From Dudresnaya verticillata (lineage: Eukaryota): DNA of 64,000 nt. Shown here piece by piece: positions 9,204-31,800 of the stretch (position 1 is its first letter; each line of letters begins with the position of its first letter). The notes beneath the pieces are model-generated. The model saw only the letters and a list, made by a program, of their open reading frames with translations. It ran no database searches and was not told the origin of the DNA. The stretch lies in contig OZ374562.1 in the NCBI GenBank assembly GCA_977862235.1, forward strand, positions 434,001 to 498,000, written 5' to 3'. The position numbers and the translations under genes are program-made.

Positions 9204-9500
9204 TGTAGCAGTATGGCACCGGCCAGGAACAGCAAAGAACAGAAAAAGACAGCTGTCCGATATCACACGGTAATGGGTGGTAGCTCGAAGGAGGTTTGGT
9301 AGAGACTTGAACGGAGGCGAGCCCTGTGTAGACTTCTAAGTCAAAGAGGAAAACAACACAACAAGAAGGCTGTCTTAGAAGATACTTCACTGAGTAGATG
9401 GTAGCTCGGTAAAGGGGTTTGGTAGAGACTTGATAGGCCTTAAAGCCCTAAGAACAGGGGAAAAGGGAAGGCGAACCCAGCCGTGTAGAGCAGTGTGTTA
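9204..9500 (-). repeat. Truncated LTR fragment, same family as solo LTR 26200-27785
   Basis: Begins TGTAGCAGTATGGC (vs TGTAGTAGAATGGC at 26200); shares GGTAGAGACTTG and GAAAAGGGAAGGCGAACCC. Confidence 0.65.
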
Positions 9501-9507
9501 TAGACAT

Positions 9508-10245: not shown

Positions 10246-11026
10246 CTTGGCTGGCGCGCTACTCTACACACTGTACAGATACTCACTAAAAATAGAGAAT
10301 AAATACTACAAATACTCCGCTACGGTTGGTGCGTTACACTGCTGTACAGCAATGCGTACCAGCGTACAGCAATGCGCACAACATCCGACACGGTTACACG
10401 TTTCCAGATTGTAAGGAAGGACCTTTTGGGTCTCTTGTGAACTCAAAGAGTGCACTCAATGAGAAAGCCGCAGCGCGGGTGCCTGGTAGCGGTGGTAGAG
10501 CGGGAGGAACCCAGAGGGTAGACGAGGGCACGTAACCTGATTGGAAGCACGATACTGAAGGTAGTTCACTGGGCGGGCAGTTAACCGGGCACGGGTGACA
10601 AGTGTGCTGTGGTGCCGATAGCTTGGAGACGTAGTTGGGGCCGGAAGGTGCTTACCTTTACTGTTCAGTGACCGCTACGGGAGATACCCTTATATGGTAT
10701 TCCGACTGTCGGGCAGCACCCCTCATACTGGGCTATATACACGCCCCCTATCCTAAGCTATAATTTCTAAAATAAATAGGCAGATACTAAGCTACTGACC
10801 TGCAGGATGACACTTGGACCAATCATGGGCTACCAATCTTGTCCCTGCTGGCGCCCTATAGGTAACGCTATTTCTGCGCATACAGCGGGCAGAGGGCCCA
10901 CTTTGTGACTTCTGTAAGCCCTTCACTGTATTACACAGATCATCAGCGTGGCGTACTGCCACATCATCCGTTACGGTTGGCTCGCCGTCGGCGTGCCGCA
11001 TGCGCGCCACAGCTCACTTCACCACA
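10246..11026 (-). repeat. 3' LTR remnant of element B (interrupted by solo LTR 10410-10935)
   Basis: Ends CTCACTTCACCACA as at 42001-42014; ~90 bp near-identical to ~41785-41870; adjacent PPT. Confidence 0.8.
10410..10935. repeat. Solo LTR, 526 bp
   Basis: TGTAA...TTACA termini; 5-bp TSD CAGAT (10405-10409 / 10936-10940). Confidence 0.85.
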
Positions 11027-11165
11027 GACCCCCCTCCTTAAATGGCGCCACGTCCTCGGGCGCCGACCGTCACGGATCTCTATCGCTTCCCCACCCACGC
11101 ACACACACAACCGATACGGAAGTGTTCTCATCAGTCCCTTCCCTTTCTTGCGCGCTTCTCCCACC

Positions 11166-12776
11166 ATGTCAGGGGAGAAGACCAAGCGCTCACCGTCGCC
11201 CTTTCAACCGACACGGCGTTCCCGCGCGGCTTCCACGACTAGGGCGCAGGGCGCGCTAACCGTTACGGATGCTTCGACTCAAGCACCGGCTTCTTCCTCG
11301 GCGGCAGCGACGCGACCCGCAACGGGCGGTCGTACGAGCGTTGCCGTGACGGAACCTTCATCGGCTCCATCAGCGGGCCGAGGTTGGTCTGTCTATGATC
11401 CGAATCGGTTTGCTGCGAGCGCAGCCACAAGGACCGCGCTACCAGGGAGTGTAGCGACCCACCGTGACGGAGAGGCGCCAACCAAGGACCGCGATGATGC
11501 ATTCCGTCGTGATGGCGAGGAGCTCAGCTTGGCAGACCTACCGGCCATTCCGTTACGGGCACCATCGACACCGGTATCGACGCCGAGTCGTAGGATGGTG
11601 GCGAGTCCACATCCTTCATCAAGTACACCGAGACGGATGCGTGGGCCCCCGCAAATCAATCATCCTGCACCGGGGCCTTGGTGGCCGGTGGTTCATACCC
11701 GTGACGGAGAGGGCCCTGCCCCGAGTGGTTATTGGCCGGGGCACCACTTTGATCATCGCGCGAGGCGCCCGGCTAGAACCGATGCGGAGAGGGCAAAGAT
11801 TAAGCCCCCGATGACGGCGGACTACTTCATCGAGAAGTATCCAACCGTCTTGGAAGCAAGAAGGTATAAGGCCGTCATGGCGCAACCCTTCAAGGCGAAT
11901 CAACGCATTGGCGTTGTTCCGAATCGGAGAGAATTTGTATGGCAAAGCCGATGGGTGCATGGCTATTGTCAAGCGCGGACCTCTACCGTTTCGGATTTGT
12001 TGTGGTATCGCTGCCATGGGGAGGTAGGATATACCGCAAAGGTGAGTCACCTGTTGGCCAAAGGTTTCCGTCTCCGGGGTGCGCCGGTCGGAGTGCAATT
12101 CATTTGCTTCGACCGCCCCTATGACCAGTCGGTATATTGGTTCAGCTATGCCGATGGGTGGAAGGACGATGCCGCGACGGAACACCGTTTGCGAACTCGT
12201 TCCCGTCACGGAATGCAAGTTGGCTCGCCAATCCTGCATACTTGGAACACTAAGGAGTTCTTCCATCTTCCGTATCGGGTGCGTCGTGAACTGTACCTTA
12301 CAGCTCCGTCATGGTGGGATCGTTATGAGGTGACCCGTTGGTTGTCTGTCCCCACACCTTCTGTCGTGGCATACTTCTCGGCGGACCTACTCACCGAACG
12401 GGAGTGGAATCACAAACATCCGAACGGAGAGCGCCCCCCGAATCAAGATCAGCTCGATGTATTGTGGCGCATCTTCCGATCGGAATGGGCAATGCTAGTG
12501 CTCTTCTCGTGGCTCCAGGTGGCCTATTACGGAGTACGGAATAATACCAAGTTAGCCGACTGGCGATGCTTCCCACGGGATGAGGATGACCTGCCCGGAG
12601 GAGACTGTGGCCGTATTTTTCAACTTCCCGTAACGCTGATCGCCCTCATTCGCCAAGTCGGCGTAGCCGATTTGGTGACGGGGTCGTCGTATCCTCTGCA
12701 TCGGGTTGAGCGTCTTTTATCCGTACACGGAGAGCAGGATTGGCAACGCACTCCGGGCTTCTTGGGGTATAGTTGG
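11166..12776 (+). pseudogene. Element B antisense accessory ORF, part 1 (537 codons)
   Basis: ATG 11166 (MSGEKTK); open until the element A insertion; rejoins 25930 in frame after removing A and one TSD copy. Confidence 0.8.
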
Positions 12777-13614
12777 TGTGGCATAGCTGTAAGACCAGCT
12801 GTGCCACGCACGCGCAGCTGTAAGACCAGCTGCGCCACGTGTGCACTGCTGTGCGCACGCTGTCAGCCGGTGGCGCCGAAGCCCCGCTGAACTGTAAGGG
12901 AGTGCGCAGTGGCGCCCACGTGTACACGCGTTCGCGTGTGACACTGAAACTCCCATGTAATTTCTACGTTTATTGTTTTGTGAGTGTACAGCACCCTCTA
13001 GTGTAAGCGGCGGTCGAACGCCCTGCTGTCCCGCGCGCTGTGCGCACGCACTCCGGCGCAGAGCCGTTGAGTGCGTGACACGCGCGCGCGCACTCCGGCG
13101 TCGAGCCGTTGAGTACGTGTGGACCGTTCCGCCTACGCGCGCCCCCGGGTTACCGTTACCCGTACGCGTCGACGCGTGTTGGGGCGCGCCGGCGCACCTC
13201 CCGGGTTGGTGCCGCCGCAGGCCCTGTAGTATATCTAGTAGTCGCCCCTCTGGGCTGCAGTAAACCAAGGCAAGCCAGCCTACGCCAGGCTTGCCCTTTC
13301 TGCTTTGGGTTTCTTTCCCAGTCCTTCGCCCTACGGCTTCCCTCTTTCCCTAGCCGTCTAGGCTTTCCTTTTCCTTTCCCTACCGTCGGCTTCGTGCCTC
13401 CCCACGACGGGGACGCAGGGATCCGGCCGCTGCCGCCCGCGTACGGTACGCCCCGTGCGCGCTCAGGCTTCGACGCCGTTGATCCGCGACCGTCGACGGC
13501 GCGCGCGGCCGACACCACCGCTCTACCACCACAGCTACCACCCTTCGACGGGTCTTGGCGCGACTGATCGACCAGCGCAGCTAGACGTCAGTTCGACCTG
13601 ACGTCTATGCCACA
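12777..13614 (+). repeat. 5' LTR of element A
   Basis: Direct repeat of 25087-25924. Confidence 0.97.
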
Positions 13615-13615
13615 C

Positions 13616-13631
13616 TGGTCTCCCGACCTAG
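13616..13631 (+). promoter_or_regulatory. Primer-binding site TGGTCTCCCGACCTAG (probably tRNA-Tyr)
   Basis: 1 nt after the LTR; the first 10 nt are complementary to a ...CGGGAGACCA tRNA 3' end as in yeast tRNA-Tyr. Confidence 0.75.
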
Positions 13632-13682
13632 AAGTCGCAGAAGACCCTATCACCTCTCGCGTCGACGCGATCGAGGCCAAGA

Positions 13683-16097
13683 ATGCCGCCGCTACCTACT
13701 TCGGCCGCTGCCGGTCCGGCAGACGCCGCGGCAGGTGAAGTTGGCGGTCGACGCACTTCCTTGCTGAGTAACGTCGGCGTCTCAGGAGCTCCCCTAGAGG
13801 AACCGCGCATCGAGCGCAGGGCGGCTATAGCCAAGGCCCTAGGAGGGACAGCGGTCTCTGCGACCGACCTCCAGCTACTCTACGAGGAGACGATGGACTC
13901 CTTTTCGGAAGTGTACGACACCTTCATGGCCTCAGTCGCAGACGCACGGGCACAAGGTCAACGTGACCTGGAGTCGCTTCGACGCGGAACTCTCGCCTCC
14001 GTCGAGGAAGGATTAACCCGAACTCAAGGGCTCCTCGACGAGCTACGCCAACGCGTTGAGTTGATTGAGCACGCACCGGCGCGGTATGACCGACGGGCGC
14101 CTAGCCCGTCGCCGGGGCGGAGCCGTCCTCCGCGATCGCCGTATCAAGCGGATCCGGTTCGCGAACTGGCCAAAGCCCTCCTCGCTGAGCGTCGTGCTCA
14201 GCGAAACCCTTTTTCTCCACCGGCCTCTCCGCCTAGGAGTGGGCAAGGGTCCCCTCGCCCTACAAGAGATGACGACCCTTCTACGGGGTCGACCCCAAGC
14301 TACTACGACGCGCCCTCGACGGGCGCGGAGTTGGAGGGGCGTCTAGCCCCTCACCACACGAAGGTCCCGTGTCGGCCTACTGGCACTGGGGGCCATTGAT
14401 GCCGGGCGTCGAGCCGCCGAGCACCTTGGTCCCCGAATTCGCGAAGGCGATCGACTACCGCTCCTATCGTCTAGACGACATAAGGCAGCGGGACAATCAG
14501 CAGCAAGTCTGCAATGGCAACACCGCCAAGATTGTCAGCCGGATGAAGGCTCTCATGCCGCGGCTAGATCGCTACGACGGCAAGGAGCCCATCCGCTTTC
14601 TTGGCGTGCTTAGACAGCTACGCCAAGCCTTCAACGGCGTCGGCCTGTCGGAAGGCGCAGCGGCGCGAGTGGTGTCCTGGTTCCTAGACGGAACGGCATC
14701 CCAGGTGTATTCGAGTCACCTTTTCTCGGGGGTCCGGACGACTAGTCGCGGCACCCCCCCGTGCTGGGCCTCGGTGGTCAATACCCTCGTCGAGAGGTTC
14801 GTCACCGACGACGTGATCGCCGACGCGCACGACCGACTGACCACCGCCCGGCAGTGGGACGCCGAGTCAGAACTCGAGTTCGCCTCTCGTCTAGAGGGCT
14901 ACGCCGATGACTGTGCCGGCGTCTACTCCGACGAGAACCTGACGCACCAGTTCTTGCGTGGTCTGCTTCCGACCACCCGACCCGCAGTAGCGGAGAAGGT
15001 AAGGCAGATGCCGATGGTCGAGCAGACCAACTTCAGTACCGTTCGTCGGATCGCCCACAGTCACAACCTACCGCGCCCGCATGGCCAAGGCGTCGACGCC
15101 GGCCATCGTTTCGGGGCGCGGTAGGGGAAGCAGTTCGCCAAGCGGCCGCACGCTGCTTATCGAGGCGCCACACACACCCGATAGGGAAGCGGCCTTCGAC
15201 GGCACGATGTTGGTGGCGCCCGATGACGATGGTTTCGAACCCGTCATGGTCGTGCCCGCGCTGTCGACAGCCGGGGCGGCGCAAGCCGAGGAGACCCTCG
15301 ACATCTCAGGACGCATCGACGCTGTCCTGCCGAGGAGGATCCCTCCGCTCACACCGGCGCAAGAGGCCATGGCCCGCGCTGTCACCCCTGATCGACAGGG
15401 GTGGTACATCTGCTGGTTCTGCCGAGAACTTGGGCACATCATGTACTCGTGCCCATTCCTGACTAAGGAACAGCAGTTGTACTGCGCGTATGCGAACTGC
15501 AGCCATAGACTGGAGACGCAGCCGCACGCGCGCAACAACTTGCAGCAGCTCATCGACGAGCGCATGCCGGCAGGCGCCAAGGCAAGTTACCCCGCAAGAC
15601 GCTTCGACGCGCAGCGGGGTGGGGCCCGACGCTTCGACGATAGGGGTCCCCCGCAGCGCTTCGACGCGCAAAGGTATCGCGGGGAGCCGCGACAGTACCG
15701 CGGGGATCGTCGAGATCCGCGCCGCGAATACCGAAGGGCAGACGTCCCGCGGTTCCTCACTCGCGACAAGCGGGTCGGGTTTGACGACCAAGCCGGTCGC
15801 CAACCTCGGGCGTCGACACCCTCGAGGCCCGACCCGCAGCGCGAACTGCTTCGGGCAGTGATGACCGTGCAGGAGCACACCGGTCTAGCAGCCGACGAGT
15901 GGCTCCCGCGAGCGCTCGACGCGCAGAGCAAGGGCGAGTCCGCCAGGGGGCAGGTCGAGCAGCCCCCGCTCCTTTTTGACACGCCGCCGCGATCGACGCG
16001 AGGCGCCGGCCCGGCCCCTAGCCAGCCAATGGGATCCGAGGAAGATAGCTCGGATTCCGAAAATAATTTTGACCGGGTCGAACCGGAAAAAGAGTAA
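13683..16097 (+). pseudogene. gag: gag of element A, split by two frameshifts (13683-14399, 14369-15124, 15081-16097)
   Basis: DYRSYRL...YDGKEPI capsid-like region shared with B gag; CCHC knuckle CWFCRELGHIMYSC. Confidence 0.85.
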
Positions 16098-16111
16098 AGG
16101 CGGCGCCGTTC

Positions 16112-19100
16112 GTGCGGTCGCGCGCACCGTCTCTCTCTACCCCAGACCCACCATCCTCCGCCAAGCCGTCGGCGGTAGGCAGGACTTCGAGTCCCAACCA
16201 ACGAAAGACCCCCTCGCCAAGCAGCGCTGAGGGGCCGCTTTGCGACGAGCCGTCGAAAGCCACGCGCTCCAGGCCACCTTGGCCCCCGCGGCGTCGACGC
16301 AAGGGACAGGCACGACGCCGAGCGCATAGGGGTCCGTCGACGGATCCCGAGGCACCCTTCGCTCCACGCGAAGGTGCCATGGCTCTCTGCGTCGACGCGG
16401 AGCCGGCCACTACCCCCGACGGGTATGTGTGCCTCTTCTCCTCGGAGATATACCGCGTGTCTGGGTCGCTAGGCGCTGACCCAGGGGTAATGATACCCCA
16501 CACCATTGCGGTGGACACCGGCTCCGGGTACAACCTCATCGCGAAGCGGGCGCTGCCGCCCGGATGGGATCAGCACGCGGCGGCGATGGAGTCGACTCCT
16601 CGCCTCGCCGGGGCTGATAAGACCCCACTGAGCCTATCAGGGGTGGCGCACCTCTCGATGAGGTTGGGGAACACGACGTTCCGCGTGCCATTCATAGTGG
16701 CAGACACCTTGGCCGTCGAAGCCCTGGTGGGAACGCAGTTCCTCAATGCGCACGTGCGAGGCATCGACGTCGAGTCGAAACGCCTATCGCTCCGACGTGG
16801 GGGCTCGGTGCCCCTCCTCAAGCGCAGTAGGCCTGCCGAGGACCGCAAGCCGTCATCGAAGCCGAAGAACCCGTCGACGGGTTTGTCGAGGAAGCACCAG
16901 AGGGAGCTCCTCGACTGGGATCACGACACCCACACCATCCGCCTCTCTAGGCAGATGGTGCTCCCAGCCTATTCCCAAAGGCTCGTCTCCGTGACTTCAG
17001 GAGCCAGTGGGCTGATCCACACCGAACCCAAACCCTCGTTGCAGTTCCGCCACGGCGTGAGACTTACCAACGGGGTGCACGACGTCGAGTGGATGCGACC
17101 TTTCGGGGTCATCGTCGGGAACTTCACCGACAAGCCTCGGACCCTGCCTAAGGGTACCGTTGTCGGCTACGCGGTTAGGAACCCGGTGGCACTGATAACT
17201 CCAGACCGCAAAGTCGCGGAGGAGTTTGGGCGGGTGATGAACATCACCACCCTACCACCACGGGGGCAGAGGCCCCCGGTCAATCAGGGTGCCGTGGAAC
17301 CATCCACCTCGCCGTCGACGGCGAAGAGCACCGACGCCCAGCCGCTGCAGGGCGCAGCTACCGCCGCAGCGAAGGCCAACCCGTCCGTCGAGGACTGGGA
17401 GGCGCAGGTCAACCTCTCGTCTATCGAAGACGAGGTGACCCGCACGGAGGTCCTCTCCATGCTCAGGAAGCATCAGTCCATGTGGGACGGGAGGCTGGGC
17501 ACTATTGCCGCCACCCGACACCACATCGACGTGGAACGGGGCACTCGCCCCATCCGCTCCATGCCCTACCGACAGGGCCCTGCCATGCGCAAGCTGGTGC
17601 AGGACGAGGTGGATAACATGCTTCGTGCAGGGGTTATCGAACCCGCCACCTCGGAATGGGCATCGCCAGTCGTCCTGGCGCCCAAGAAGGACGGCACACT
17701 TAGGTTTTGCGTGGACTATCGACGTCTCAACACGAAAACACTAAGTGATGCGTACCCTCTACCGAGGATGGACGACTGCATCGACAGTCTAGGCGACGCA
17801 GCCGTCTTCTCGACGTTGGACTGCAACGCGGAGTACTGGCAAATCCCTGTCGCAGAGGCTGACAGGGATAAGACCACGTTCACTTCGTTCTTAGGGACGT
17901 TTCGCTACTTGCGAATGCCCTTCGGGCTGAAGAACGCCCCCGCGACTTTCCAGCGCGCACTAGACATCATCCTCAGCGGATTCCGATGGCAGTGCTGCCT
18001 GATCTATCTAGACGATGTGATCATTTTCTCGCGGTCGATCGCGGAGCACGTTGGTCATTTAGACCAAGTGCTGACTCTGTTGCACAAGGGAGGAGTATCC
18101 CTGAAACTGAAGAAGTGCCACTTCTTTCAGTCACGCGTTGGCTATCTCGGCCACGTCATCGAACCGGGGAAGCTACGCATGGCGCAGACGAGCAGCGACG
18201 CTTTCCGCCATGCGCAGTTCCCGACCTCCCTGACTAAGGTGAGGTCGTTCCTCGGCGCGTGCAATGTCTATCGCCGCTTCCTGCGCAACTTCGCGAAGAT
18301 CGCGCGTCCTCTGACGAACATGACCCGCAAAGACGCGGATGTGGATTTCGACAATCCAAGCGCCGACGCGCTCGAGGCATATGAGACGCTCCGAGCGAAG
18401 CTCATATCGCCCCCTATCCTACGGCTCCCCAAGACGGGTAGACCCTACGTCCTCGATACGGACGCATCGGCTTATCAGCTCGGATGCGCCCTACTGCAGG
18501 AGCAGGAGGACGGCCAGCTACACCCAGTCGGGTACTGGTCCTACTCGCTCAACTCGGCGGAACGGAATTACTCCGCCACTGAGCGTGAGTGCTTCGCAGT
18601 GGTGTGGTCGATCACAACCCTGCGGCCATACATCGAAGGCACGCGATTCACGGTTCGAACCGATCACGATGCGCTTCGATGGCTGATGTCGCTGACCGAC
18701 TCTTCGGGTCGACTGACCCGGTGGCGCCTGCGGCTCGCGGAATTCGACTTCCAGATCGAGTACCGCCCCGGGCGGGTACACCAAGTCCCGGATGCCCTGT
18801 CCCGCTTGGTTCGACCCCAGCGGAAACAGGAGGAGGTTGACGACGACGTCCCTACCTTTGACCCCCCGGCGGTCGACCGCCCGCAAGGGGAGTCCTCGGC
18901 TGAGACGCCGGTGGCACGTCCGGGTACAGAACCCGCGGCTCCCGTCTTGGTAACCACACGCTCGCGGTCCAACGCATCTACGCGTTCGGCCCCAGCGCAG
19001 CCCGTTCCGAAGCCAGTCCGTGTAAGCATCACCGGCACCGCGCCCAAGACGGGCGCGGCAGATGAACCCCCGGACTTGGCCGACGAAGCGGCGTGGGACG

Positions 19101-20821
19101 ACACCGACGACGTCGACCTCTTCGATCTCCTCCGCGTCGACGCGGGCGACGAGCCATCGGACTTGACGTCCGTGGAGCCAGTGAAGCTCCCTTCACCTAT
19201 TTCCGTCGAGGAATTTGTGGACGCGCAGCGGCACGACTCCTTCTGCCAGACCGTACTGGCCAGGCAGTCCCGTCGACGGGATAGCCATTTTTACGAGGAC
19301 GGGGATGGGCTTCTATGCCGCCATCATCCGGTCATAGCTTCGCTAGACCAGATAGTGGTGCCCGAGTCGTTACAGCCTCGGCTGCTCACGCTCGCGCACC
19401 ACTCCCTCCTCGCGGGCCACCCAGGGCAGAACAAGATGTTCTATTCCCTGCGTGAGACCTACTACTGGCCGCATATGGCGGCCAGCATCGCCATGACAGT
19501 AAGAAACTGCAGGCACTGTGCCCGTAACCGCATTCGACTGCGCAGACACCTTCATAGACTGAAGCTGTTCCCGGCCACCAGGCCGCTGGAATCCGTTGCT
19601 ATCGACATACTGGGCCCCTTGCCCAAGACCAAGTCTGGTCGCAAATTCCTCGTCATCATGACGGACCGCTTTACCAAGCTAACGCAAGTCGCGCCTCTGC
19701 GCACCATTACGGCTTACAACGTCGCAGTTGTCTTCTGTGAACAGTGGGTCTTCCACTACGGGCCGCCTAGGTCCTTGCTTTCCGATAACGGAAAGCAGTT
19801 CACATCGAAGTTCTTCCAAGCCGTCTGCCGGTATTTGGGTTTGAACAACGTGTTCACCTCCGCGTATCACCCCCAGTCGACTGGGCAGGCTGAACGCTAC
19901 AACCGGACCGTCATGGCCATGTTGAGGAACTACGTCAACGATCACCAAAACGATTGGGATCGCTACGCCTCTGCGTTGACGTATTCCTACAACTGTCACG
20001 TGCACCGCTCGACGCGGACGACTCCATTCAGCTTAGTGCTGTCACGGCCTCCGCCGGAATTTACTAAGTTTCACTCGGCGGTCGACCGCCCGAAACCTAG
20101 TGAGGATGTCCGAACGGACTTCCTCAAGCGGTTAGACACCGCTATGGGCCTGGCTTCTGCCGCCCTGGCCAAAACGCAGAGGCGTTACAAAAAGGACTTT
20201 GACCGACGGGTCCGGAAGGTCAACTCCCGCATCAAGGCCGGAGACTACGTCTTCATCGACGCAACTGACGGGGTGACGAAACCACCGAAGTTGCAGAGCC
20301 CGGCCATCGGGCCTTATCGCGTGCTGCTCAACGACGAGCGCACGTTGTTTATCGACAGAGACGGCCTGGTCGAACGCATCGCAGCGGACCGAGCCGTCTT
20401 CTGTCCCCCGCCTCTGCGGGAAGACACCGCGCGTCGAAGCGCGTACTTGCCCACAGCTAACGATCTCGCGTCCAAGGCCGTCGACGGCCCGCGGTTCGTG
20501 GTGGACAAGGTACTTGACTATGGCACGGCCGAAGACGGCACGATGCTCTTTCAGGTCAAGTGGACCGGCTACTCTAAGCCCACTTGGGAACCTCGATCCC
20601 ATTTGCCGGAGGAGATGATGAGCCAATACTTCCGCGCGAAGAAGCGTCGGAAGGACTCTGGGCTCGACGCCCCATCCCCTCCACTCGCCCCCTCGGCGGG
20701 GCGCCTCGTGCTTAAGGAGGGGGCCCCAGGCATTCTTTGCCTCAGGCATTCCTTGCCTGTTATTACCCTCATCCAGGCATCCTTTGCCTTTTTCCCAGCG
20801 ACGGGAACACGTGGGGCCTAA
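16112..20821 (+). CDS. pol: pol of element A: PR-RT-RNaseH-IN-chromodomain (in -1 frame relative to the gag end)
   Basis: VDTGSG protease; RFCVDYR, MPFGLKNAP, YLDD; DTDAS RNaseH; HHCC plus DDE integrase; GPY; VDKVLD..VKWTGY..TWEP chromodomain. Confidence 0.97.
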   Translation: MRSRAPSLSTPDPPSSAKPSAVGRTSSPNQRKTPSPSSAEGPLCDEPSKATRSRPPWPPRRRRKGQARRRAHRGPSTDPEAPFAPREGAMALCVDAEPATTPDGYVCLFSSEIYRVSGSLGADPGVMIPHTIAVDTGSGYNLIAKRALPPGWDQHAAAMESTPRLAGADKTPLSLSGVAHLSMRLGNTTFRVPFIVADTLAVEALVGTQFLNAHVRGIDVESKRLSLRRGGSVPLLKRSRPAEDRKPSSKPKNPSTGLSRKHQRELLDWDHDTHTIRLSRQMVLPAYSQRLVSVTSGASGLIHTEPKPSLQFRHGVRLTNGVHDVEWMRPFGVIVGNFTDKPRTLPKGTVVGYAVRNPVALITPDRKVAEEFGRVMNITTLPPRGQRPPVNQGAVEPSTSPSTAKSTDAQPLQGAATAAAKANPSVEDWEAQVNLSSIEDEVTRTEVLSMLRKHQSMWDGRLGTIAATRHHIDVERGTRPIRSMPYRQGPAMRKLVQDEVDNMLRAGVIEPATSEWASPVVLAPKKDGTLRFCVDYRRLNTKTLSDAYPLPRMDDCIDSLGDAAVFSTLDCNAEYWQIPVAEADRDKTTFTSFLGTFRYLRMPFGLKNAPATFQRALDIILSGFRWQCCLIYLDDVIIFSRSIAEHVGHLDQVLTLLHKGGVSLKLKKCHFFQSRVGYLGHVIEPGKLRMAQTSSDAFRHAQFPTSLTKVRSFLGACNVYRRFLRNFAKIARPLTNMTRKDADVDFDNPSADALEAYETLRAKLISPPILRLPKTGRPYVLDTDASAYQLGCALLQEQEDGQLHPVGYWSYSLNSAERNYSATERECFAVVWSITTLRPYIEGTRFTVRTDHDALRWLMSLTDSSGRLTRWRLRLAEFDFQIEYRPGRVHQVPDALSRLVRPQRKQEEVDDDVPTFDPPAVDRPQGESSAETPVARPGTEPAAPVLVTTRSRSNASTRSAPAQPVPKPVRVSITGTAPKTGAADEPPDLADEAAWDDTDDVDLFDLLRVDAGDEPSDLTSVEPVKLPSPISVEEFVDAQRHDSFCQTVLARQSRRRDSHFYEDGDGLLCRHHPVIASLDQIVVPESLQPRLLTLAHHSLLAGHPGQNKMFYSLRETYYWPHMAASIAMTVRNCRHCARNRIRLRRHLHRLKLFPATRPLESVAIDILGPLPKTKSGRKFLVIMTDRFTKLTQVAPLRTITAYNVAVVFCEQWVFHYGPPRSLLSDNGKQFTSKFFQAVCRYLGLNNVFTSAYHPQSTGQAERYNRTVMAMLRNYVNDHQNDWDRYASALTYSYNCHVHRSTRTTPFSLVLSRPPPEFTKFHSAVDRPKPSEDVRTDFLKRLDTAMGLASAALAKTQRRYKKDFDRRVRKVNSRIKAGDYVFIDATDGVTKPPKLQSPAIGPYRVLLNDERTLFIDRDGLVERIAADRAVFCPPPLREDTARRSAYLPTANDLASKAVDGPRFVVDKVLDYGTAEDGTMLFQVKWTGYSKPTWEPRSHLPEEMMSQYFRAKKRRKDSGLDAPSPPLAPSAGRLVLKEGAPGILCLRHSLPVITLIQASFAFFPATGTRGA

Positions 20822-21960
20822 GCCCCACGGTAAGGGCATGAATTGCGGCTGCCTAAGCCGGCGGCCCAAGCCGAAAGCACCCTGCGCCAATGGCAGAGGC
20901 CAAGGAGCAGGCGTGCTCTGCGAACTGCGCATCGCAGGGACGCTGGGCACGACGCCCCTCGCTACTACCGGCTCGACGCCCGGCAGTAGCGACGTCCCGC
21001 TACGCGGAAGACAACCCGCACCGTCGGGGGTTGTCTGACCAACGCCGACGCGAAGCCGCGCACAGATGGCGGAGGGAAGGCGTCGACGCCCCCTTCACCA
21101 ACGCCGCGCCGCGGTCGCGCGTAATATTCGGCCAACAACCACCGCCCTGGCTCCTAGCCGGGCGGGGTGCCAACGCACACAGATCCCACGTCGAGGTGGG
21201 GCGCCAGAGCCAAGAAGGCCGGCGTCCTTCGAGTTGCACCGCTGCGCTTCGACGAGCGAGCGGCACAACCACCGCGACGGTGGGAAGGCCGGGGGCACCG
21301 CGGCAGACGACCGGCCCCTGCCAAATACAGGCGCGCGCTTACCCATATTTGGGACGCGTGCGCCCCACAAGCGCAGAGGCGCAGATTTGTGTTCAGGCTA
21401 CAGTGTCTACTATAGCCAAAACACAAATAATTGGGAACGCCCAATGGGGTTCGACACCCCCGGGCCTCTGCCCACTCATCCAGGGGCATCGACGCCCCTG
21501 GCCTGGGTTGGCTGCACAAGCCGCCGCCACGCTCGTGGCTACTCCCGGCGGAGGGGACCCCGTCGACGCGGTCACCTCCGGCGCAAAGCCGCGACGCCAC
21601 TAGGGGCACCCGCTCCGCGCTGACGCTCCGCGTCGACGCGGTGTTGCGCGCGCTGGCAGCCCCCTGTGTGGCGTCGACGCCAGCACTGCGGACCGCCACC
21701 CGCTTCGACGTGGGTCAGGCACAATAGCACCCATGAGGAGGTGGGGCGTCGAAGCCCCACCACCTGCTACAGCGAGCATAGCTCGCACGCAGCCGCGCGG
21801 TCGAAGGCGCAGCTGTTGAAAACGCGTCGACGCGGACCGAAGTCTTCGCCCACCCCTTGCCCTTTTATGAACCAGACACGCAGCGGCGGTCTAAAAACTA
21901 GCGAGGCGATCGACCGCCTCGAACTAGGATGCTTCTACAGCATAAGCCACTACGGCATAA

Positions 21961-24754
21961 CTACTGGGCGGCCTCGCCCCCAGAACCCACGCCGGGAAAG
22001 GCGGGCGCAGAGCCCGCTGCCCCCGGCGCCGCGGGCACGTAGCCCTCAACCACCATTGTGATTGCCGCTGGCGCTGGTGGAAGACCCCCGGCGGGAAGCG
22101 GAGGCGCCGAGCCTCCGTACGCCACTGCGCCCCCACCTATGGGAGCTGCAGGGCGGTAAGGGCCCATCGACGGGCCCCTCACTTGCGGAAGAACCGCTTG
22201 CTGTGGCACGACGCCTGCAGCACTGGGCGGCGCGCCTGCGCCGCCCTGAGCGCCTGGGTACATCAGTTGCCCGGCGCCTTGCCAAGGGGCAGCCGGGCCA
22301 GAAGGGCCCGGAGCGTACGACTGCATCGGCTGCATCGACGCATACCCCGTCGGGGGCGGCTGGTACTCCTCGCGAAGCCTCTTGCGCGCCGGCGCATAAG
22401 ACATGCGCTGGACTTCCCCGCGGAGCCTCTGCACCTCGCGGGCAAAGCCGTCCCGCTCGTCGCGGTATCGAACCGCGACGGCATTGGAGGCGTTGACGTC
22501 CTCCTGCAGCGCCACTGCGCTCGATGCCAGGGCCTGCAGGAGCGTGCGTGTCGACACGCCTTGCCCGACGCGCGCCAAGGAGGCCGCGCTGCGTACAGTC
22601 GGATCGGCCCAGACTGCCGCACTCACCGCCTCGTCCAGTGGGTCGACCACTGGAGGAGGTGGGACATAAGCCACCGCCGGCGACCCAGACGGTTCCGGCG
22701 GGGGCTGGTACACCTCAACGGCAGCGGCCGGAGGGGCGCGGGCCGTCGACGGCCCCGCAGCAGCCGGTCCGCCGACTGCCGCAGGGGCGGCTGGCGCACG
22801 ACGCGCAGACGCCCTTGCGGGCGGCGGGATGTATGACTCGGTCTCCGCCGCCATGACGGCCGCGGCTGACCCAGGGTTAGCACCCACGCCACGACGGCGA
22901 CGACCGGCGCGCTCAGTGCGGGCCATGTCGGCCACCGAGGCGAACCCGGAGCGCTCGACGCGCTCCCGCCGGTCACGTGCGCCACGATTGCGCTGGATCT
23001 TATAGAGGCCCCCTATCTCTGGCAAGAAGCCACACACGAACGCGTCGACGCGTGAAGAGAAGTGACGCCTCCGCGTGTGCTTCTCCGTTGCCGCAGCCAC
23101 TCGGCGGACTACGCCGAGTAGCTCGCCGAACCCAAAAGACGTGCCATCCGAAGGACGGAGCAAGTCTGGGAAACACGGCCTCTCGCTTGACCAGCCGGTC
23201 GCGAGGAAATTAATCAGACGGTCGTCGAAGACCCAGCCTGTCCCCTTCGCGAGGAGCTCGCTACAGTAGCGGCGGCCCACCTCGAAGGCGTATTCATCTG
23301 AGCGCCTAGCCAGGAGCTCACGACGAGCAGCTACGCGACCGACTGTCGCGTAGTGGAAATACCGGTCTACGGTTATCCACGGGATAGTGAATCCCGATGG
23401 CGTCTCCCGGTGGGAGTACCACTCCGCTGATGGGAACCCGGCCGCGTCGAGCGCCGGGTGCAACTTGCACCCCTTTGACGGGCGTCCTTCGCCCGGGGCC
23501 TTGCACACGTCCCAGTCCCGCTCCCCGAAGCACACCCCAAAGAGGCGGCGCGCAGAGTCGGCATCGGCCAGACGGTGCGCGAGGTCCACGGGCTCGTCGA
23601 CGGGCACCGTGCGCATCTCTGGGATGGTGGCAGGCAGGGGCGGGGCCCACTCATCGGCGGGTGTCAGGAAGAGGGCATCGGCTGCCCTGTCCACCCGCCG
23701 AAGCTCCTCAAGGGACGTAAGAAACGTCGCCGGGTAACCCTAACGGCGTGAGCCAGACTATGGCGTCCGCCGGGAGGAAAGCGGCATAGGCTGCCGCCCC
23801 TCCGTCCACGCTCGCGTGGGCCACCCTCAGGAGCCGCCGGACGCCTGCCCGAGGCTCCTGCAGCCCGCGCCACTGATCCAGCGGGATTTGGTGGCGCGGC
23901 GCCCCCCAGGCGAAGACCGTCTCTTTCGGGGGCGCGTGCTGTCCAGGGGGCGCCTGGCCCATGAGGGGCGGTCCGACTGAGACCGACACCCCAACAAGAG
24001 GCACGACGGGCGCAGCGGTGGACTCACCCACGCCCGCGGCCTCCCCCTCTGCGTTGGCAGAGGCCACGGGAGACGGCGTCGGGACCGTCGACGGCCCCAA
24101 GCCACTAGAATCGCGCGGCACAAAGGGTGCCGCCGCTGCGGGGACTTTCCCCGACCCTGATGGCGTGGGTGACCTCGACCGACTCAGGTCGAGCACCCTC
24201 GCCACCATCGGCACCGCGGAGCGCGAAGGGTGCTCCGCGGGTGCCCCTCCTCGCGTCGACGCGGGTTGATTGCTGTGAGCCGTAGGCCCTGCGCGAGGCG
24301 GGCCAGTCGGCTGAAAGAACCGAGCCGCCGCTACTGGGCGCGGGGCGGCAGAGGCCGCCCCACTCGGGTCCTTCACTCTCTTGCCCTGCGCCGCAGCAAG
24401 GGCCACCGCCTCTGACCAGACGTCAGCGGCGGGCGTTGGGGTGGGGTTGGCGTCGACGCCACCCGCCCCGGCGGACGAAGCCGGCGCAGCAGCCCCGGCC
24501 TTGCCCAGCGCACCCGTCGATGGGGGCGCTTCTTCTGGCGCAACCGTCGAAGGTTGCGCCTCTTCTGTAGCGACCGTCGAAGGTCGCTCTGCGGTTGGCG
24601 CGGCCGTCGAAGGCCGCGTCTCTCCGCCAGCCGGCGCCCTTGGCACCGGCTCGGCAGGCCCACCCCCTACGACTGCCTCAGCCGAGGAGGTGGGCTTGGT
24701 AACCGGCGCCCCCTCGGCGGGGGCGCCGTCCGCGATCGGTTCGCGTGACTCCAT
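21961..24754 (-). CDS. Element A antisense accessory ORF (~930 aa; one frameshift near 23710-23740 joins 23708-24754 and 21961-23694)
   Basis: Two long abutting ORFs antisense to pol, between pol and the 3' LTR; Ala/Pro-rich ends, aromatic core and coiled coil. Confidence 0.7.
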
Positions 24755-25074
24755 CGCCGCGTCGACGCTGGCGATGGGGGAGGAAGTTGAGAGGGTCGAA
24801 AGCTTGGCGCGTATGGCACTGGTCGACAGGCAGCTGTACGCGTGGGGCAGGGAGTGTTGGCGGTCGTGGTGAGCGATGACCAGACCACCCACCCCTCGGA
24901 GCCGCAGAGGCGGCTCCCTAAATAGCCCGTCGCGGCTCAGCGCGGGCACACCCGACGTGGCATCGACGCCCGTCACCGACGGACGCCCGGGAGCCCGCTT
25001 GCCAATCCCGGGCGCCGTCTTGGCCACCCCACAGCGTGCGCGTTGTAACGGTCGCAACCGAGGCGTTCGCGCTT

Positions 25075-25083
25075 GAGGGGGGG
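25075..25083 (+). promoter_or_regulatory. Polypurine tract of element A
   Basis: GAGGGGGGG 3 nt before the 3' LTR. Confidence 0.8.
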
Positions 25084-25086
25084 TTG

Positions 25087-25924
25087 TGTGGCATAGCTGT
25101 AAGACCAGCTGTGCCACGCACGCGCAGCTGTAAGACCAGCTGCGCCACGTGTGCACTGCTGTGCGCACGCTGTCAGCCGGTGGCGCCGAAGCCCCGCTGA
25201 ACTGTAAGGGAGTGCGCAGTGGCGCCCACGTGTACACGCGTTCGCGTGTGACACTGAAACTCCCATGTAATTTCTACGTTTATTGTTTTGTGAGTGTACA
25301 GCACCCTCTAGTGTAAGCGGCGGTCGAACGCCCTGCTGTCCCGCGCGCTGTGCGCACGCACTCCGGCGCAGAGCCGTTGAGTGCGTGACACGCGCGCGCG
25401 CACTCCGGCGTCGAGCCGTTGAGTACGTGTGGACCGTTCCGCCTACGCGCGCCCCCGGGTTACCGTTACCCGTACGCGTCGACGCGTGTTGGGGCGCGCC
25501 GGCGCACCTCCCGGGTTGGTGCCGCCGCAGGCCCTGTAGTATATCTAGTAGTCGCCCCTCTGGGCTTCAGTAAACCAAGGCAAGCCAGCCTACGCCAGGC
25601 TTGCCCTTTCTGCTTTGGGTTTCTTTCCCAGTCCTTCGCCCTACGGCTTCCCTCTTTCCCTAGCCGTCTAGGCTTTCCTTTTCCTTTCCCTACCGTCGGC
25701 TTCGTGCCTCCCCACGACGGGGACGCAGGGATCCGGCCGCTGCCGCCCGCGTACGGTACGCCCCGTGCGCGCTCAGGCTTCGACGCCGTTGATCCGCGAC
25801 CGTCGACGGCGCGCGCGGCCGACACCACCGCTCTACCACCACAGCTACCACCCTTCGACGGGTCTTGGCGCGACTGATCGACCAGCGCAGCTAGACGTCA
25901 GTTCGACCTGACGTCTATGCCACA
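25087..25924 (+). repeat. 3' LTR of element A
   Basis: Direct repeat of 12777-13614, followed by TSD GTTGG. Confidence 0.97.
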
Positions 25925-25929
25925 GTTGG

Positions 25930-26199
25930 GATGAGGACCGTGTCCTATCGGTGCCCCCGCTTAAGCCCGGAGTGGGTGAGCCACATTTCCTTCATCGAGA
26001 AGATCGGCGTCCGGAATGGTTGGCCTTAGAGGTGCAGGCCTATCGTGGTTATGCGCCTCGCCAAACACCAAGGGATGCGTACCGTGACGGTTTGGACGGG
26101 GCCGAAGATTGGGGGAGTTGTCAGGAGACAGCGGGGCGTTCGCGTGCAATCGACCCGCGCGATTCCGTTACGGTGAGGCAGCAAGAAGCTGGCCCCTTC
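25930..26199 (+). pseudogene. Element B antisense ORF, part 2 (90 codons)
   Basis: Reads ...GYSW|DEDRVLSVPPLKPG...EAGPF| in frame with parts 1 and 3. Confidence 0.75.
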
Positions 26200-27785
26200 T
26201 GTAGTAGAATGGCCCTCGGCCAGGTAGTCGGCGATAAAACGGCGCGAGAGCTGTCCTGGGGACAAACAATCACGGTGGGCGGTAGCTCAAAGGAAAAGGG
26301 AAAAAGGGGTGTGGTAGAGACTTGTAATGGGTGTAATACCCAGGAACAAAGAAAAGGGAAGGCGAACCCTACAGCGTAGAGCAATCGTCGTACACGATAG
26401 GGCTTGTAGACGCCCAAGGCAAGGGAACAACGGTGGCACCGTAGGAAGACCAGAAAATGGGTACAGCCCAAAGTACACACCGCTGCCGGTTTACTGCGGG
26501 GCCCCTGCTACTCAGGGGCCCAATAAATACGGCGGGAAGCCGGAAATGCTACCCACTCTAAGTTAGAGTTATAATACTGACAGTTGCCTAATACTGTACA
26601 CTAAGGGTGGATTATGTAGTGCCAGGTGGGGGTCCCCCATTTTCGCTTTCAAGCGGGTTGATATGCAGCGTCTACCGACGGACGACCGCCAACGGCGCGC
26701 TCAACCCGCCCGCGGCGCAAACACGTCACCGAAGCATGCCGCTGGCCACTTGGACCAGAACGGCTCGCTTGGCGTGCAGACCGCACGCCTGAACCCGGGA
26801 CACTGTACGGCGCCACGCGTACGCGCATGGCGCAGTGGCGGGAACGTTCGCTGTAAGCATGGCCCGAATCCGGATCCAATCGGGATCCCACATCGGGATC
26901 AGACATCGGGATTAAGAGGTGTCAGGCACGCGCCTGTAAGCCTGGCGCATCCGCATGGCTGGCCCGAATCCGGACTGGATCGGGATTGGTGCGGATCGAG
27001 ATCGCACGCGCCATGGGGTGCATGCGGCTGTAAGGAAGTAATCCACCTGTAGGTGTAAGGACTCGAGCGGGGAAGCTACACGTGATCTGTCAGGAGCGCG
27101 GCTGCATGACGGACGGATCTGTCAGACGCGCCTCGGGACAACACGTGTCCCGAGTTCCCGCGTGGCGCGTAGACACGCGTCGCCGCCGCTAGGTAATTCT
27201 ATACTTAGTTGATCCGTCTCAGACGTCACAGTAAACCCCGGCAAGCCGGCCTTGGTCCAAGCTTCCCCGTTCAGCACGCGCGGACCCTACCGCTGCCTAC
27301 TACTAAGCGTCTACCTCCCGTGCTTCCACGTCTCTACCCGTCTTTGACGTGTTCCCTTTTTGTTCCCTTTTGTTCTTCCTTTCCGCCTCGGGCGTTTACA
27401 GTCCGCCCAAGGCGAGTCAACTGCTCTACCACAAGTCGCCCAAGGCGAGGCTACTCACCGCCACGGGCGTCGCTACCCACCGAGCCCCGAACTGCTCGGC
27501 GGTGTTCCGTCTAGGACGTTTGCACTACAGATTACAATCCAATGATAGGAATAAGTGGTAGTACCACTACGAGGTACCGGCGCGCTGCTGTCTGGCGCGC
27601 AATGCCAAAAATAGGTACAGGCGCGCTGGTTGTCTGGCGCGCAGTGCCAGAAATATGGGTGACCATGATTAATCAACCAATGGGACTCGGCCATCTCAAC
27701 CATCGCACCCTCGGGCGCCTCACGCCTTACAGGCGTCGCCTGTACACGTGTTTGCTTACAGCGCTCGGGCGCTCATTGTTCCACA
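26200..27785 (-). repeat. Solo LTR (~666 bp net) containing a nested solo LTR
   Basis: TGT...ACA termini; TSD CCTTC (26195-26199 / 27786-27790); removing it restores the reading frame; orientation inferred. Confidence 0.85.
26615..27529 (+). repeat. Solo LTR, 915 bp (family of 43830-44718 and 45386-46368)
   Basis: TGTAGTGC...GCACTACA termini; TSD GATTA. Confidence 0.9.
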
Positions 27786-27790
27786 CCTTC

Positions 27791-28783
27791 TTGGAAGAAC
27801 AGGAGGAGGTCATGCCCCTCGCATCAATGGCAGCGGATATCGAGAAGACAGCCGCTCCAATCCTTCCGGTGGCCGCTACACCCACGTCGCGCAATGTAGA
27901 TCGTGAGACTACTATTCCCGTATCGGATAAGGCACCAACGCCCATAGGCGCGGTTGTGCCTACTATGGCGGTGCCCAAGCCTGCGGCACCATCCGAGAAG
28001 GGGGCCTCAAAGGAGCAGACCGTTTCGGAAGTGGCGCCGGGTACTGTGCCGGCGGCACTGTCTACTGCGACGCAAATTCCTGCAGCCGCCGAACCGCCCC
28101 AGCCAAGTGCTCCGCTGTTGGCGCCCACTCCCATACCAGCGGTGAGTGAGGCTCCGATCACAGTATCGGAAGTGGCTGCAAAGCGCCCAAGTGTCGGGGC
28201 AGCTGGTGACAAGCCTTCGGTCCCCGCGTCAGGTCCTGAACCGTTACGGAAAAGCGATATCGCCTCGCTAGAGAAGGACACGAATCCACCGCTGCGGAAG
28301 GAAGTACCTTCACCCGAGTCGGGACCATCCGTATTGGTGGTTTCCTCAACGGAGCACTCAATCGAAGCCGGGGTTAGGGATAAGCCGTCGATCTACCCGA
28401 AGGTAGAGTTTCAAGAAGATGAGGATCCCCCCGTTACGGTTCCGGCTCACTTAGCCGCTACGGAAAGTGGGTTACAGGTGCTACGGGGCATTTGCCGTAC
28501 GCAGCGCTTCCCATTGCCGGGATCCGTTCAGGAAGCGCTAACCTTAGCGGAGGGGCTGATGGAAAAGGTGATTCATCTCCGCGGAGTGGTACATCGTCAG
28601 CGTCGGCGTATGGATAATGCAATCCGCATCTTAGGAGACAAGAAGCAACGCGCATTCCAACCGGATCCGACTGGAGAACCCGGGTTACGAACGGGTCAGG
28701 GGGTAACGAGGAAGATACAGTTGCCCCTGCTCCGAAGCGGCGTCGCCGTAACTCTTAGAGTTACAGTTCGACGATCTCCTTAA
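27791..28783 (+). pseudogene. Element B antisense ORF, part 3 (330 codons plus stop)
   Basis: |LEEQEEVMPLAS... Pro/Ala-rich, then helical VQEALTLAEGLMEKVIHLRGVVHRQRRR; stops 75 nt from the pol/chromodomain stop. Confidence 0.75.
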
Positions 28784-28858: not shown

Positions 28859-31800
28859 TTACGGCGAGTGACGTGTTGGATTAGCACGTCGCCGTGGCTT
28901 GCCCTTACCGGAGGTCTTTTTCTTTTGCTTCCAATACCGGTAGATGAAATTCTGCGGCAACTCCTCCGCGGGCTCAAAAGTGTCCTGATCCGGAGGGTAA
29001 CCATACCAGCGGACTTTATAGGTCATCCTAGTAGGTTCGTCGGGGTGACCGACAATCTTGTCGATCACATATTCCGTATCGGCTTGTAGAGGTTCCGCTC
29101 CGGAGGGTGTAATGCCCGCTGACGGCGTAGGCGTTACTGCCGTACCTTCTGGATGTGGCACTACTTCTCCTTAAACGGTTGATGGCCCGACAGGCGGCAC
29201 TGTTAAGGGCGCCGGCTGAACCGCAACTCCGATCGGAACTTTCGTGATGCGATCGATGCTTACTGGGATCAATACCCCTTCCTTGCGGAATGTAACCACA
29301 TTTTCCGTTGCGGATTCCACTTCATAAGGCCCCGTGGCTCGCGGAAGAAGTTGCTTCATTTCCTGAGCCACCTCGCCCACATTACCCGGTTTGCCTTCCA
29401 ATCGGTCCCGCTCACGGCGTTCGGCAGGCCGCAAGTTATGGGGCGGCCGGTCGACATAGACTTGATCTCCGCTACGGATTATGGGCCTAGAGCGCACCTT
29501 ACGGTCAAAACGTGCCTTGGCTTTTTGCTGAGCCACTGTCTGCTTAGTGCGCGCTGTCTGGAGCGCATACCGTAAACGGCTCATGGTGCTCCGCTTCTGT
29601 AACACCGGGGTCATACGCCCTTCCGTAACGGTTTCTTGATGCTCGGCAGGAGCCCCTCGTACAACAATGTCCGATGGGTGGCGTGTCAGCACCAAATCAA
29701 ATGGCGTTGTTTCCGTAATACGGTGTACCTGCATGTTGTACGCATACGTCAACGGCTGCAGGTACAAATCCCAATCGGAGTGATGATCCTCAACGTAATG
29801 TCGCAAACGCTGGGCGATTGTCTTATTAAATCGCTCAGCTTGCCCATTTGTTTGCGGATGGTAGGCAGCGGTTAATAGGTGCCTGAATCCGAGTAAGGAA
29901 CACACCGCGTCAAAGAACTTAGCAGTAAACTGCGGTCCGTTATCGGATAGGACAAATTGGGGTGCGCCATACGCATAAACCCAAAAGTCCAGAAAGGCGT
30001 TAGCCACCACAACGGCTGTTGTTGTCCGTAACGGAATACAGCGCGTCAGCGTAGAGAACCGATCGGTTATTACCAGAACGTAGACATAACCCCGTTTTGT
30101 CTTCGGAAGTGGCCCGAGAATGTCGATAGCGACAAACTCCAAAGGTCCGCTAGCGGGGAAAAGTTTCATAAACCTTTGATTCCGAAAGCGGGTTCCCTTT
30201 GTCTTCACGCAGGAGCGACATGTCTGAACGGATTCAAATACATCGTTGGCCATATGAGGCCAATAATAATCCTGTCGGAGTGTATAATACATCTTATTTC
30301 CGCCTGGGTGGCCCGACATCAGGGTGTAGTGGGATAAATACAATACCCGTCCACGGAGTTTGCTTGGCATCACCTTCTGTAGAGCGCCATCCAATTGGGA
30401 CTTGCGTACCAAGAATCCGTTACGGTCATAGTCAAACTGTGATCCAGGGGAGCCTACCGTATCGGCTTTGAGACGACAGAAAGGGTCTCTGGCTTGGGCT
30501 TCGAGGAACTCCTCCCTGGTAATTGTCTCATCCTTAACGTCGGATTCTTGGATTACAGTAAACCGTGACGGTGTTGCGTCGGGCTTGTCAGGGGAGGCAG
30601 ATGCACTCCCACTGGCGAGCTCCACGGCGCATATTACGTTATTTTCCGTAGCGGTTTCTCGTGATGTAGCCCAATCGGTTAAATAAACTCCATGCTCATA
30701 TAATCCGTCGACGGTATTTTCGGCGACAAAGCAGGGTATCTCTTCATCCAAAGGTCTATTGTCACCGCCATCCGTTCGGAGTCGCGACATCCCATCGGCG
30801 AGTTGATGCTTAATTCCAGGACGGTATTGCACCTCAAATTGAAATTCCGATAGGCGGAGCCTCCACCTGGCTAGGCGGCCAGATGAATCTGCGAGGTTCA
30901 GGATCCACCGCAGGGCATCATGATCCGTTCGGAGAATAAACTTGTCACCATAAACGTAGGGTTGGAGTGTTAACATGCTCCAGACCACGGCTAAGCATTC
31001 CTTTTCGGTTGTCGTATAGTATTTCTCCGCATCGGTGAGGCTTCGGCTCCAATATCCAATAGGGAGGTGATCGGCATTCTGTTGTTCCTGCAGAAGGACA
31101 CAGCCGACTTGGTGGTCACATGCGTCAGTGTCCAACGTATATCTATATCCGTGACGGGGTAGAGCCAATATAGGTGGAGAGATAAGGCGTCTCTTCAGTT
31201 CCTCGAAGGCTTCACATTCCGTATCGGATAATATTCCAAACTCAAAGGGTGAGCCCTTGCCGGTTTTCTCATTTAGCGGAGCTGAAATCCGAGCGAAGTT
31301 GGGTACAAAGCGACGATACACGTTGCACATTCCCAAGAAGGATCGCAATTCCGTTTGGTTAGTCGGCGGCTTCGCGACCTTAACGGATTGGATATTTCGA
31401 TTATCCACTTCTAATTTTCCGGGACGGATAACATGCCCCAGGTATTGTACAGACGCGTTGAAGAAGTCACACTTTGACAATTTCAACGTTACCCCAGCGG
31501 ATCGTAAAAGCGTAAGGACTTCCTTCAGGTGGTGGAAATGTTCCGTAACGGTTTTTGAGTAGACCATTACATCGTCTAGGTAGACGAGGGCAAATTGCCA
31601 TTTAACCGTAGAAAGGATTATATCCACTGCCCGTTGGAAGGTTGCCGGTGCATTTTTCAATCCGAATGGCATTCTCCGAAAACGGTATAAGCCAAAATGG
31701 CTAGTGAAGGTAGTTTTGTCCCTTTCCTCTTCCGGAATCTCGACTTGCCAATATCCACTATTGCAATCCAGGGTGGTCAATACAGTAGCTTCCCCAAGGG

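Follow-up and report, generated by a model that had tools for sequence, protein, structure and literature searches.

The function of antisense extra open reading frames (ORFs) in long terminal repeat (LTR) retrotransposons is treated as an open question in PMC7264820, which describes gene23 of the element Grande as nuclear and driven by its own promoter. Elsewhere, PMC5735166 describes VANC proteins that bind family-specific words of 8–9 nt and remove silent marks, and PMC13547354 reports homology between VANC and MAIN. Silencing is also documented in red algae, with reports of transposon repression by PRC2 in a red alga (10.1101/2022.10.24.513474) and of DNA methylation in Gracilariales (PMC9861306). 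Here we describe an antisense gene of a Ty3/gypsy chromovirus, element B, located in a stretch of 64,000 nt of Dudresnaya verticillata (assembly GCA_977862235.1, contig OZ374562.1, positions 434,001 to 498,000; hereafter, the window), together with a palindrome that recurs all along the element and that the gene product may recognize.

In the window, intron-poor host genes flank a set of nested LTR retrotransposons. Element B lies on the minus strand and is organized as 5' LTR, primer binding site (PBS), gag, protease (PR), reverse transcriptase, RNase H and integrase with a chromodomain (RT-RH-IN-chromodomain), the ORF region, polypurine tract (PPT) and a 3' LTR remnant. The order PR-RT-RH-IN and the C-terminal chromodomain, as defined by Pfam, plus the TG..CA LTRs, the PBS and the PPT, assign it to the Ty3/gypsy chromoviruses. 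Its region between pol and the 3' LTR spans 3,088 nt and contains the antisense ORF, now in three pieces separated by two insertions:

11166 to 12776, plus strand: piece 1 of the antisense ORF (residues 1–537), 1611 nt, stop-free, its core with an AlphaFold2 (AF2) mean confidence (pLDDT) of 87
12777 to 25924, plus strand: element A, a young chromovirus inserted in the ORF, with GTTGG at 12772–12776 and 25925–25929 and LTRs identical at 837 of 838 nt
25930 to 26199, plus strand: piece 2 (residues 538–627), 270 nt, 90 stop-free codons
26200 to 27785, no strand assigned: insert in the ORF resembling a solo LTR, with TG..CA ends and CCTTC at 26195–26199 and 27786–27790
27791 to 28783, plus strand: piece 3 (residues 628–957), 993 nt, ending in TAA

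A sequence-only reading of this DNA had proposed that a single stop-free ORF of 957 residues spans both insertions, and our analysis bears this out. Each piece contains a whole number of codons, the three are in phase across the insertions (537 + 90 + 330 = 957) and the sole stop is the final TAA; the proposed target site duplications (TSDs), GTTGG around element A and CCTTC around the second insert, are likewise present. Given the stop rate in the remaining five frames of the pieces (158 in 4,773 codons), 957 codons would stay open by chance with a probability of ca. 1e-14. That reading was also right in placing the end of the ORF tail-to-tail with the chromodomain frame, with 75 nt between both stops. 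Conversely, its claim that the frame is better preserved than gag and pol does not reach significance, because no lesions in 957 codons compare with three in ca. 2,219 codons (two premature stops and one frame change; P(0) = 0.27), and the ORF has itself suffered two insertions. From these sequence features and the homologies described below, we conclude that the ORF is a genuine accessory gene borne by a Ty3/gypsy chromovirus family and since broken by two insertions. The present copy cannot make the full protein.

Piece 1 comprises a disordered N-terminus rich in Ser, Thr and Pro (residues ca. 1–190) and most of a folded core (residues ca. 191–537; 11736–12776), piece 2 contains the final core residues and the start of a linker, and piece 3 encodes a Pro/Ala linker, a helical motif (28469–28552), a short predicted coiled coil and a basic KKQR motif situated 46 residues before the end of the protein. 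A full HMMER scan with residues 165–537 as query retrieved 109 clusters of homologs at E ≤ 0.001, 34 of them at 1e-10. A profile constructed from 23 homologs, excluding the window, kept 107 of these 109 clusters, the two lost being repetitive hits, and it matched the window core (E = 1.3e-77) as far as the codon immediately preceding element A. We looked up 30 clusters, of which one was named, containing hypothetical proteins from Gracilariopsis chorda, and the other 29 correspond to ENA, Logan or JGI records. The G. chorda members amount to four sequences under five locus tags that are 91–97% identical, a multi-copy set with a repeat-like pattern; the G. chorda records are PXF39757.1, PXF42436.1, PXF44118.1, PXF45335.1 and PXF45952.1. 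As the only named homologs, they would by themselves point to a florideophyte red alga as the probable host. Uninterrupted homologs of ca. 550–1,160 residues share a common plan of disordered N-terminus, core of ca. 350 residues, disordered linker and helical tail. Sequence conservation is low, with a median core identity of 24% among 33 well-covered sequences; nevertheless, 41 core columns are at least 70% conserved, with Arg as the commonest residue (9/41), and the core has an isoelectric point of 9.5. Conserved residues include His265, Asp277, Glu286, Tyr289, Glu339, Glu440 and Asp465.

Other searches were largely negative. Word-indexed homolog searches returned 0, 0 and 1 protein, one of the zeros covering only 2035–5000 aa, and no homolog locus was confirmed in metagenome, viral or prokaryote-genome collections. 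A degenerate motif scan yielded 43 loci; in none of them did the coding similarity to the family exceed a chance motif, the best having E = 9e-4 over 38 residues. The family did not match phages or PDB sequences, and 11 of its members did not match NCBIfam or PHROGs.

We evaluated the first junction without joining the pieces, by means of a scoring matrix for the 10 columns located immediately after it in 43 homologs. Against this matrix, the first 10 residues of piece 2 scored 14.3 bits, the top value among the 94,542 10-mers of the window, and read-through into the LTR of element A scored −10.1; on this sequence evidence, the family motif carries on into piece 2 exactly at the junction. The homology of piece 3 is weaker. 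With the helical motif found in 8 of 34 homolog tails, it ranked first among 1,336 ORFs, but with E = 0.19, and with a matrix from 13 tails it was within the top six of 58,156 28-mers; the sequence thus ties piece 3 to the family less firmly than piece 2. The motif K[KR]x[KR] occurs within the last 40 residues of 11 of the 34 tails (11 in 1,360 versus 5 in 8,883 residues), and we take these basic C-terminal motifs, including the KKQR of the B protein, to be putative nuclear signals.

AlphaFold and Foldseek analysis of the core, suggested by the sequence-only reading, produced a confident AF2 fold (pLDDT 86.7, predicted TM-score 0.87) and no Foldseek match at E ≤ 0.001 in PDB or in the viral folds of BFVD. 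The AF2 model of a natural uninterrupted homolog has the same order of helices, plus a C-terminal helix of 56 residues. In VIA fold searches, the best result for the core was Z = 3.7 (root mean square deviation 3.7, 77 aligned residues), and the natural homolog retrieved generic coiled coils only (Z ≤ 6.0). No Pfam family matched any of the three ORF pieces; likewise, among 96 aligned family members no Pfam family fits the core, and only coiled-coil families appeared, in one member each. The protein is thus predicted to combine a globular core, whose fold is unmatched, with a coiled coil at the C-terminus, in keeping with the earlier observation that it contains no recognizable domain, although null fold searches do not prove that the core fold is new.

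The position of the ORF between pol and the 3' LTR would suit an env-like membrane protein, and 9 of 26 long homologs contain a 19-residue window with a hydropathy of at least 1.8. We nonetheless consider this extremely unlikely: the ORF is antisense instead of sense, hydropathy in the 957-residue protein peaks at 1.56 over 19 residues without any transmembrane segment, and the prediction is of a single globular core with no viral-fold match, within a family showing basic tails that resemble nuclear localization signals (NLS). This agrees with the absence of an env-like transmembrane or fusion signature already perceived from the sequence.

The best clue to function is a lattice of palindromes, missed by the sequence-only reading:

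10246 to 42014, no strand assigned: B palindrome lattice, 84 CCG-N3-CGG sites, 24 of them exact CCGTWACGG

In the 10,959 nt of B's own sequence, the 84 CCG-N3-CGG sites compare with 7.9 expected (log10 p −55), and this word ranks first among 576 gapped palindromes; the excess is specific to this spacer, other spacers giving 1–15 sites. The exact CCGTWACGG occurs 24 times versus 0.2 expected, 12 times per strand. Sites with at most one mismatch number 73 in B, 3 in element A, none in the copia element described below, none in the left host region and 4 in the right 22 kb. The word is graded in the manner of a binding site. Neither this word nor that of element A (see below) is seen in the copia element or in three host ORFs, and all 16 tandem arrays lie outside B's own sequence. 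The sites are found in the LTR, in the untranslated region and, within gag, pol and the antisense ORF, in each of the three codon phases, where they change amino acids, and exceed synonymous-codon shuffles in all seven B ORF pieces (0–3 of 500 shuffles reach them). Between 27791 and 35833, they have a mean spacing of 151 nt; their distribution is somewhat more even than random (coefficient of variation 0.72, p 0.03; largest gap p 0.01). With respect to variable pol positions, they showed no significant bias (p 0.28 and 0.08). We also considered that the word might act as an RNA hairpin, and ruled this out because of its 12/12 distribution by strand and because its flanks are no more complementary than shuffled ones. 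Weaker enrichments (log10 p ca. −6) were seen in other LTR-rich regions.

The lattice bears on the origin of the gene. The antisense ORF contains 25 CCG-N3-CGG sites versus 3.9 under synonymous shuffle, a density equal to that of gag and pol, which suggests that it has evolved inside B for as long as they have. It is therefore very improbable that the ORF is a host gene lately captured by this copy as a passenger, an origin that also fits poorly with the multiple, 91–97% identical copies of G. chorda.

Element A carries a different word. Its CGTCGACG, CGTCGA(CG), appears in 24 copies versus 1.4 expected, with 75 CGTCGA sites, and is spread across coding frames like that of B. A second word in A (12777–25086), GCAGAGGC, is present 13 times versus 0.9 expected and is absent from B. 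The pol products of both elements are 47–53% identical, and none of 15 word sites in aligned pol coincide within 3 codons, so that there is no sharing beyond chance. Element A also contains its own antisense coding capacity:

25273 to 23708 and 23739 to 21961, minus strand: A antisense ORFs, unrelated to B's ORF

This region of ca. 3.1 kb (21961–25273) has two overlapping frames, of 348 aa from the first in-frame Met and of 592 aa from stop to stop, which may be one frameshifted gene. Their products are of low complexity, with an aromatic core and a coiled-coil stretch, and lack Pfam matches; they were considered as homologs of the B protein and rejected on sequence comparison.

Palindromes can also accumulate merely because mutation or repair is biased, as with HIP1 in cyanobacteria, without selection for a docking lattice. 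The core could then be a sequence-specific enzyme that modifies DNA or directs its repair, with conserved residues (His265, Asp277, Glu286, Tyr289, Glu339, Glu440 and Asp465) that could be catalytic and sites that accumulate in all frames and alter amino acids. We regard this as improbable, because no enzyme fold or family was matched, spacing is more even than random and the word is restricted to one element and is not genome-wide. The Atlas leads to ADP-ribosyltransferases (DarT/PARP/Arr) scored 0.78–0.80, under its bar, were not supported by the fold search and were rejected.

Our preferred, still tentative, interpretation is that the antisense protein would be a nuclear, oligomeric binder of the WCCGTWACGGW lattice that keeps family copies transcribed against silencing; we give it somewhat less than an even chance. 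Its gene would be transcribed in antisense from a separate promoter close to where the PPT meets U3, and the basic C-terminal motifs would take the protein into the nucleus. Because the palindrome is graded and strand-neutral, and without hairpin extension, we propose a dimer that binds double-stranded DNA and reads the family palindrome at intervals of ca. 150 bp along the entire element. An element-encoded reader is suggested by the fact that two related elements with different extra ORFs have family-specific words, and the antisense protein is the candidate for its basic conserved core, coiled-coil tail and NLS-like end. The outcome might be anti-silencing or trans-activation of family copies, judged the likeliest by analogy with VANC and in view of the PRC2 repression of transposons in a red alga.

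Alternatively, the ORF could be a genuine accessory gene whose product does something else in the nucleus, such as helping to import or target the pre-integration complex, tethering to chromatin or interfering with small-RNA silencing, and the lattice could be read by Gag, integrase or a host factor. Roles of this kind are proposed for plant antisense ORFs in PMC7264820, and the lack of relationship between the antisense proteins of A and B is in its favour. We hold this to be a serious but minority possibility, since A and B, despite pol products that are 47–53% identical, have entirely different words whose sites do not coincide in aligned pol. A reader that changes fast and is particular to each family fits this better than a conserved enzyme or a single host factor would.

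Several observations weigh against the proposed lattice binder. Its connection with the palindrome is indirect and correlative, from two elements with an extra ORF and a lattice and one with neither, and the odds we attach to this connection are likewise a little below even. The Pfam, Foldseek and VIA searches of the predicted structures and sequences yielded no fold or domain known to bind DNA, the terminal basic motif is missing from 23 of 34 homolog tails, and the peptide footprint of B's word was not seen in 28 long homologs. Judging by their sequences, the antisense proteins of A and B are unrelated, so two different proteins would share one role. Finally, B's word is palindromic, dispersed and mostly coding, whereas VANC motifs lie in non-coding tandem repeats.

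The sequence-only reading situated the start of the ORF ca. 140 nt inside the 3' LTR/PPT; this is incorrect, as the LTR has its inner edge at 11026 and the ATG is found 139 nt further on, past the PPT and within the internal region. A transcript begun in the LTR would first meet an out-of-frame ATG at 11042, from which a frame of 66 codons runs over the main start. This favours a transcription start in the internal spacer, or leaky scanning, over the plain LTR promoter that the sequence-only reading thought probable and, from the sequence, a start within this 139-nt spacer, as reported for maize Grande gene23, appears at least as likely as one in the LTR. Separately, the LTR-like insert at 10411–10935 contains a TATATA at 10734, on the plus strand and 430 nt upstream of the antisense ATG.

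The remaining features of element B, and the insertions within its LTRs, are as follows:

10246 to 11026, minus strand: B 3' LTR remnant, cut at 10246 by an LTR-like stretch (9204–10245) with no matching TSD
10411 to 10935: LTR-like insert in the B 3' LTR, 525 bp, TSD CAGAT
11029 to 11039, minus strand: B PPT
28859 to 29170, minus strand: B integrase tail and chromodomain (PF00385, E = 3e-10), preceded by an in-frame stop (29173–29171)
29171 to 33207, minus strand: B pol, with PR at 33207–32224 and RT-RH-IN at 32308–29171 in differing frames
33350 to 35665, minus strand: B gag, with an internal stop at 33928–33926
35787 to 35802, minus strand: B PBS, its first 16 nt identical to those of A
35808 to 42014, minus strand: B 5' LTR, in two parts owing to the insertion of a young copia element
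35834 to 41363: copia element in the B 5' LTR, TSD GAACT, LTRs identical at 559 of 559 nt

The LTRs of B are identical at 61 of 62 nt in their inner part and at 137 of 164 and 47 of 86 nt further out, with the 3' LTR truncated, and this uneven identity suggests that the copy may be recombinant or old. The PBS common to A (13616–13631) and B is TGGTCTCCCGACCTAG, which we presume not to be of the usual initiator-Met type, and a similar site exists at ca. 43810–43828. The LTRs of the copia element seem to end in TG..AG rather than TG..CA, and its PBS begins with GGTTATGGGCCCAG, presumably of the internal-tRNA type of Drosophila copia. B is inserted in a 159-codon fragment (42007–42486, minus strand) with a coiled-coil-like end and no Pfam match, perhaps the tail of the extra ORF of another element. 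In element A, the gag region (13632–16097) extends over three frames despite LTRs differing at 1 of 838 nt; the copy may be non-autonomous and have been mobilized in trans, the shifts may be programmed, or the assembly may contain errors. An LTR at 42888–43738, in reverse orientation, is 86% identical to that of A and keeps two CGTCGACG sites. Lastly, repeats of ca. 1 kb, both direct and inverted (94%), surround copia fragments at 55806–62645, with a recurrent TCCCGCCCA.

In the literature titles and abstract openings covered, we found no such ORF in red algae and no such lattice in an LTR element, and retrotransposon terms do not occur in 10.64898/2026.08.24.746577. At the least, the G. chorda proteins annotated as hypothetical host proteins are probably transposon-borne. 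The family is unannotated and comprises more than 100 clusters; its fold is predicted with confidence yet unmatched, and WCCGTWACGGW provides it with a precise ligand candidate. If the protein does read this word, class I elements would have converged on anti-silencing of the VANC type, and selection on DNA words would have been strong enough to shape the codons of gag and pol. More generally, each family of red-algal chromoviruses might have an antisense protein of new fold that reads a palindrome of that family, tiled at nucleosome-scale spacing through the element's own genes, in a VANC-like self-recognition; we see this extension as possible but doubtful. It would be the first case of sequence-specific anti-silencing in an LTR retrotransposon, and its proteins would form a new class of DNA-binding proteins that can be retargeted.

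Among known systems, the aORFs-3R of Retand/Tat elements (maize Grande gene23, rice RIRE2 and Silene Retand; TRP28/PF04195) are large ORFs antisense between pol and the 3' LTR, like that of B. The size of this region is comparable (3,088 nt in B, 2,933–6,566 nt in Retand; PMC11963269), and both types of protein lack transmembrane segments, have a coiled-coil tail and a proposed nuclear role (PMC11963269 and PMC7264820). However, Retand is a non-chromovirus, whereas B has a chromodomain (E = 3e-10) and no tandem arrays and its family is seen in a red alga; also, TRP28 (PF04195) was detected in 0 of 96 family members (E ≤ 0.01), with no shared Pfam domain. By sequence, then, the B ORF works like the Retand/Grande antisense aORFs but is not one of them. 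There are two other antisense cases. Boty/brtn of Botrytis cinerea is likewise a gypsy element from outside plants that carries an additional ORF in antisense (PMC7264820 and 10.1101/2021.04.13.439636), although its host belongs to another kingdom. HBZ of HTLV-1 is an antisense nuclear regulatory protein from the 3' end of a retroelement (as cited in PMC11963269 and PMC7264820), but its promoter is in the 3' LTR and the B protein is unrelated to it.

VANC, from the Arabidopsis VANDAL elements, is likewise an extra element protein with a coiled coil (PMC5735166 and PMC13547354), and VANDAL and B have both accumulated a short family-specific word that differs between related families (PMC5735166). 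B is an LTR retrotransposon (class I) and VANDAL a Mutator-like DNA transposon, and similarity of the B core to MAIN/PMD was not found in Pfam nor among the Foldseek and VIA matches listed, the presence of 9LNK (VANC21) in those libraries being unverified. The B ORF could work like VANC without being a member, with binding and demethylation by B proposed by analogy. In all, the antisense ORF of B represents a protein family that is new, although its place in the element is a known one, and that has a testable candidate target.

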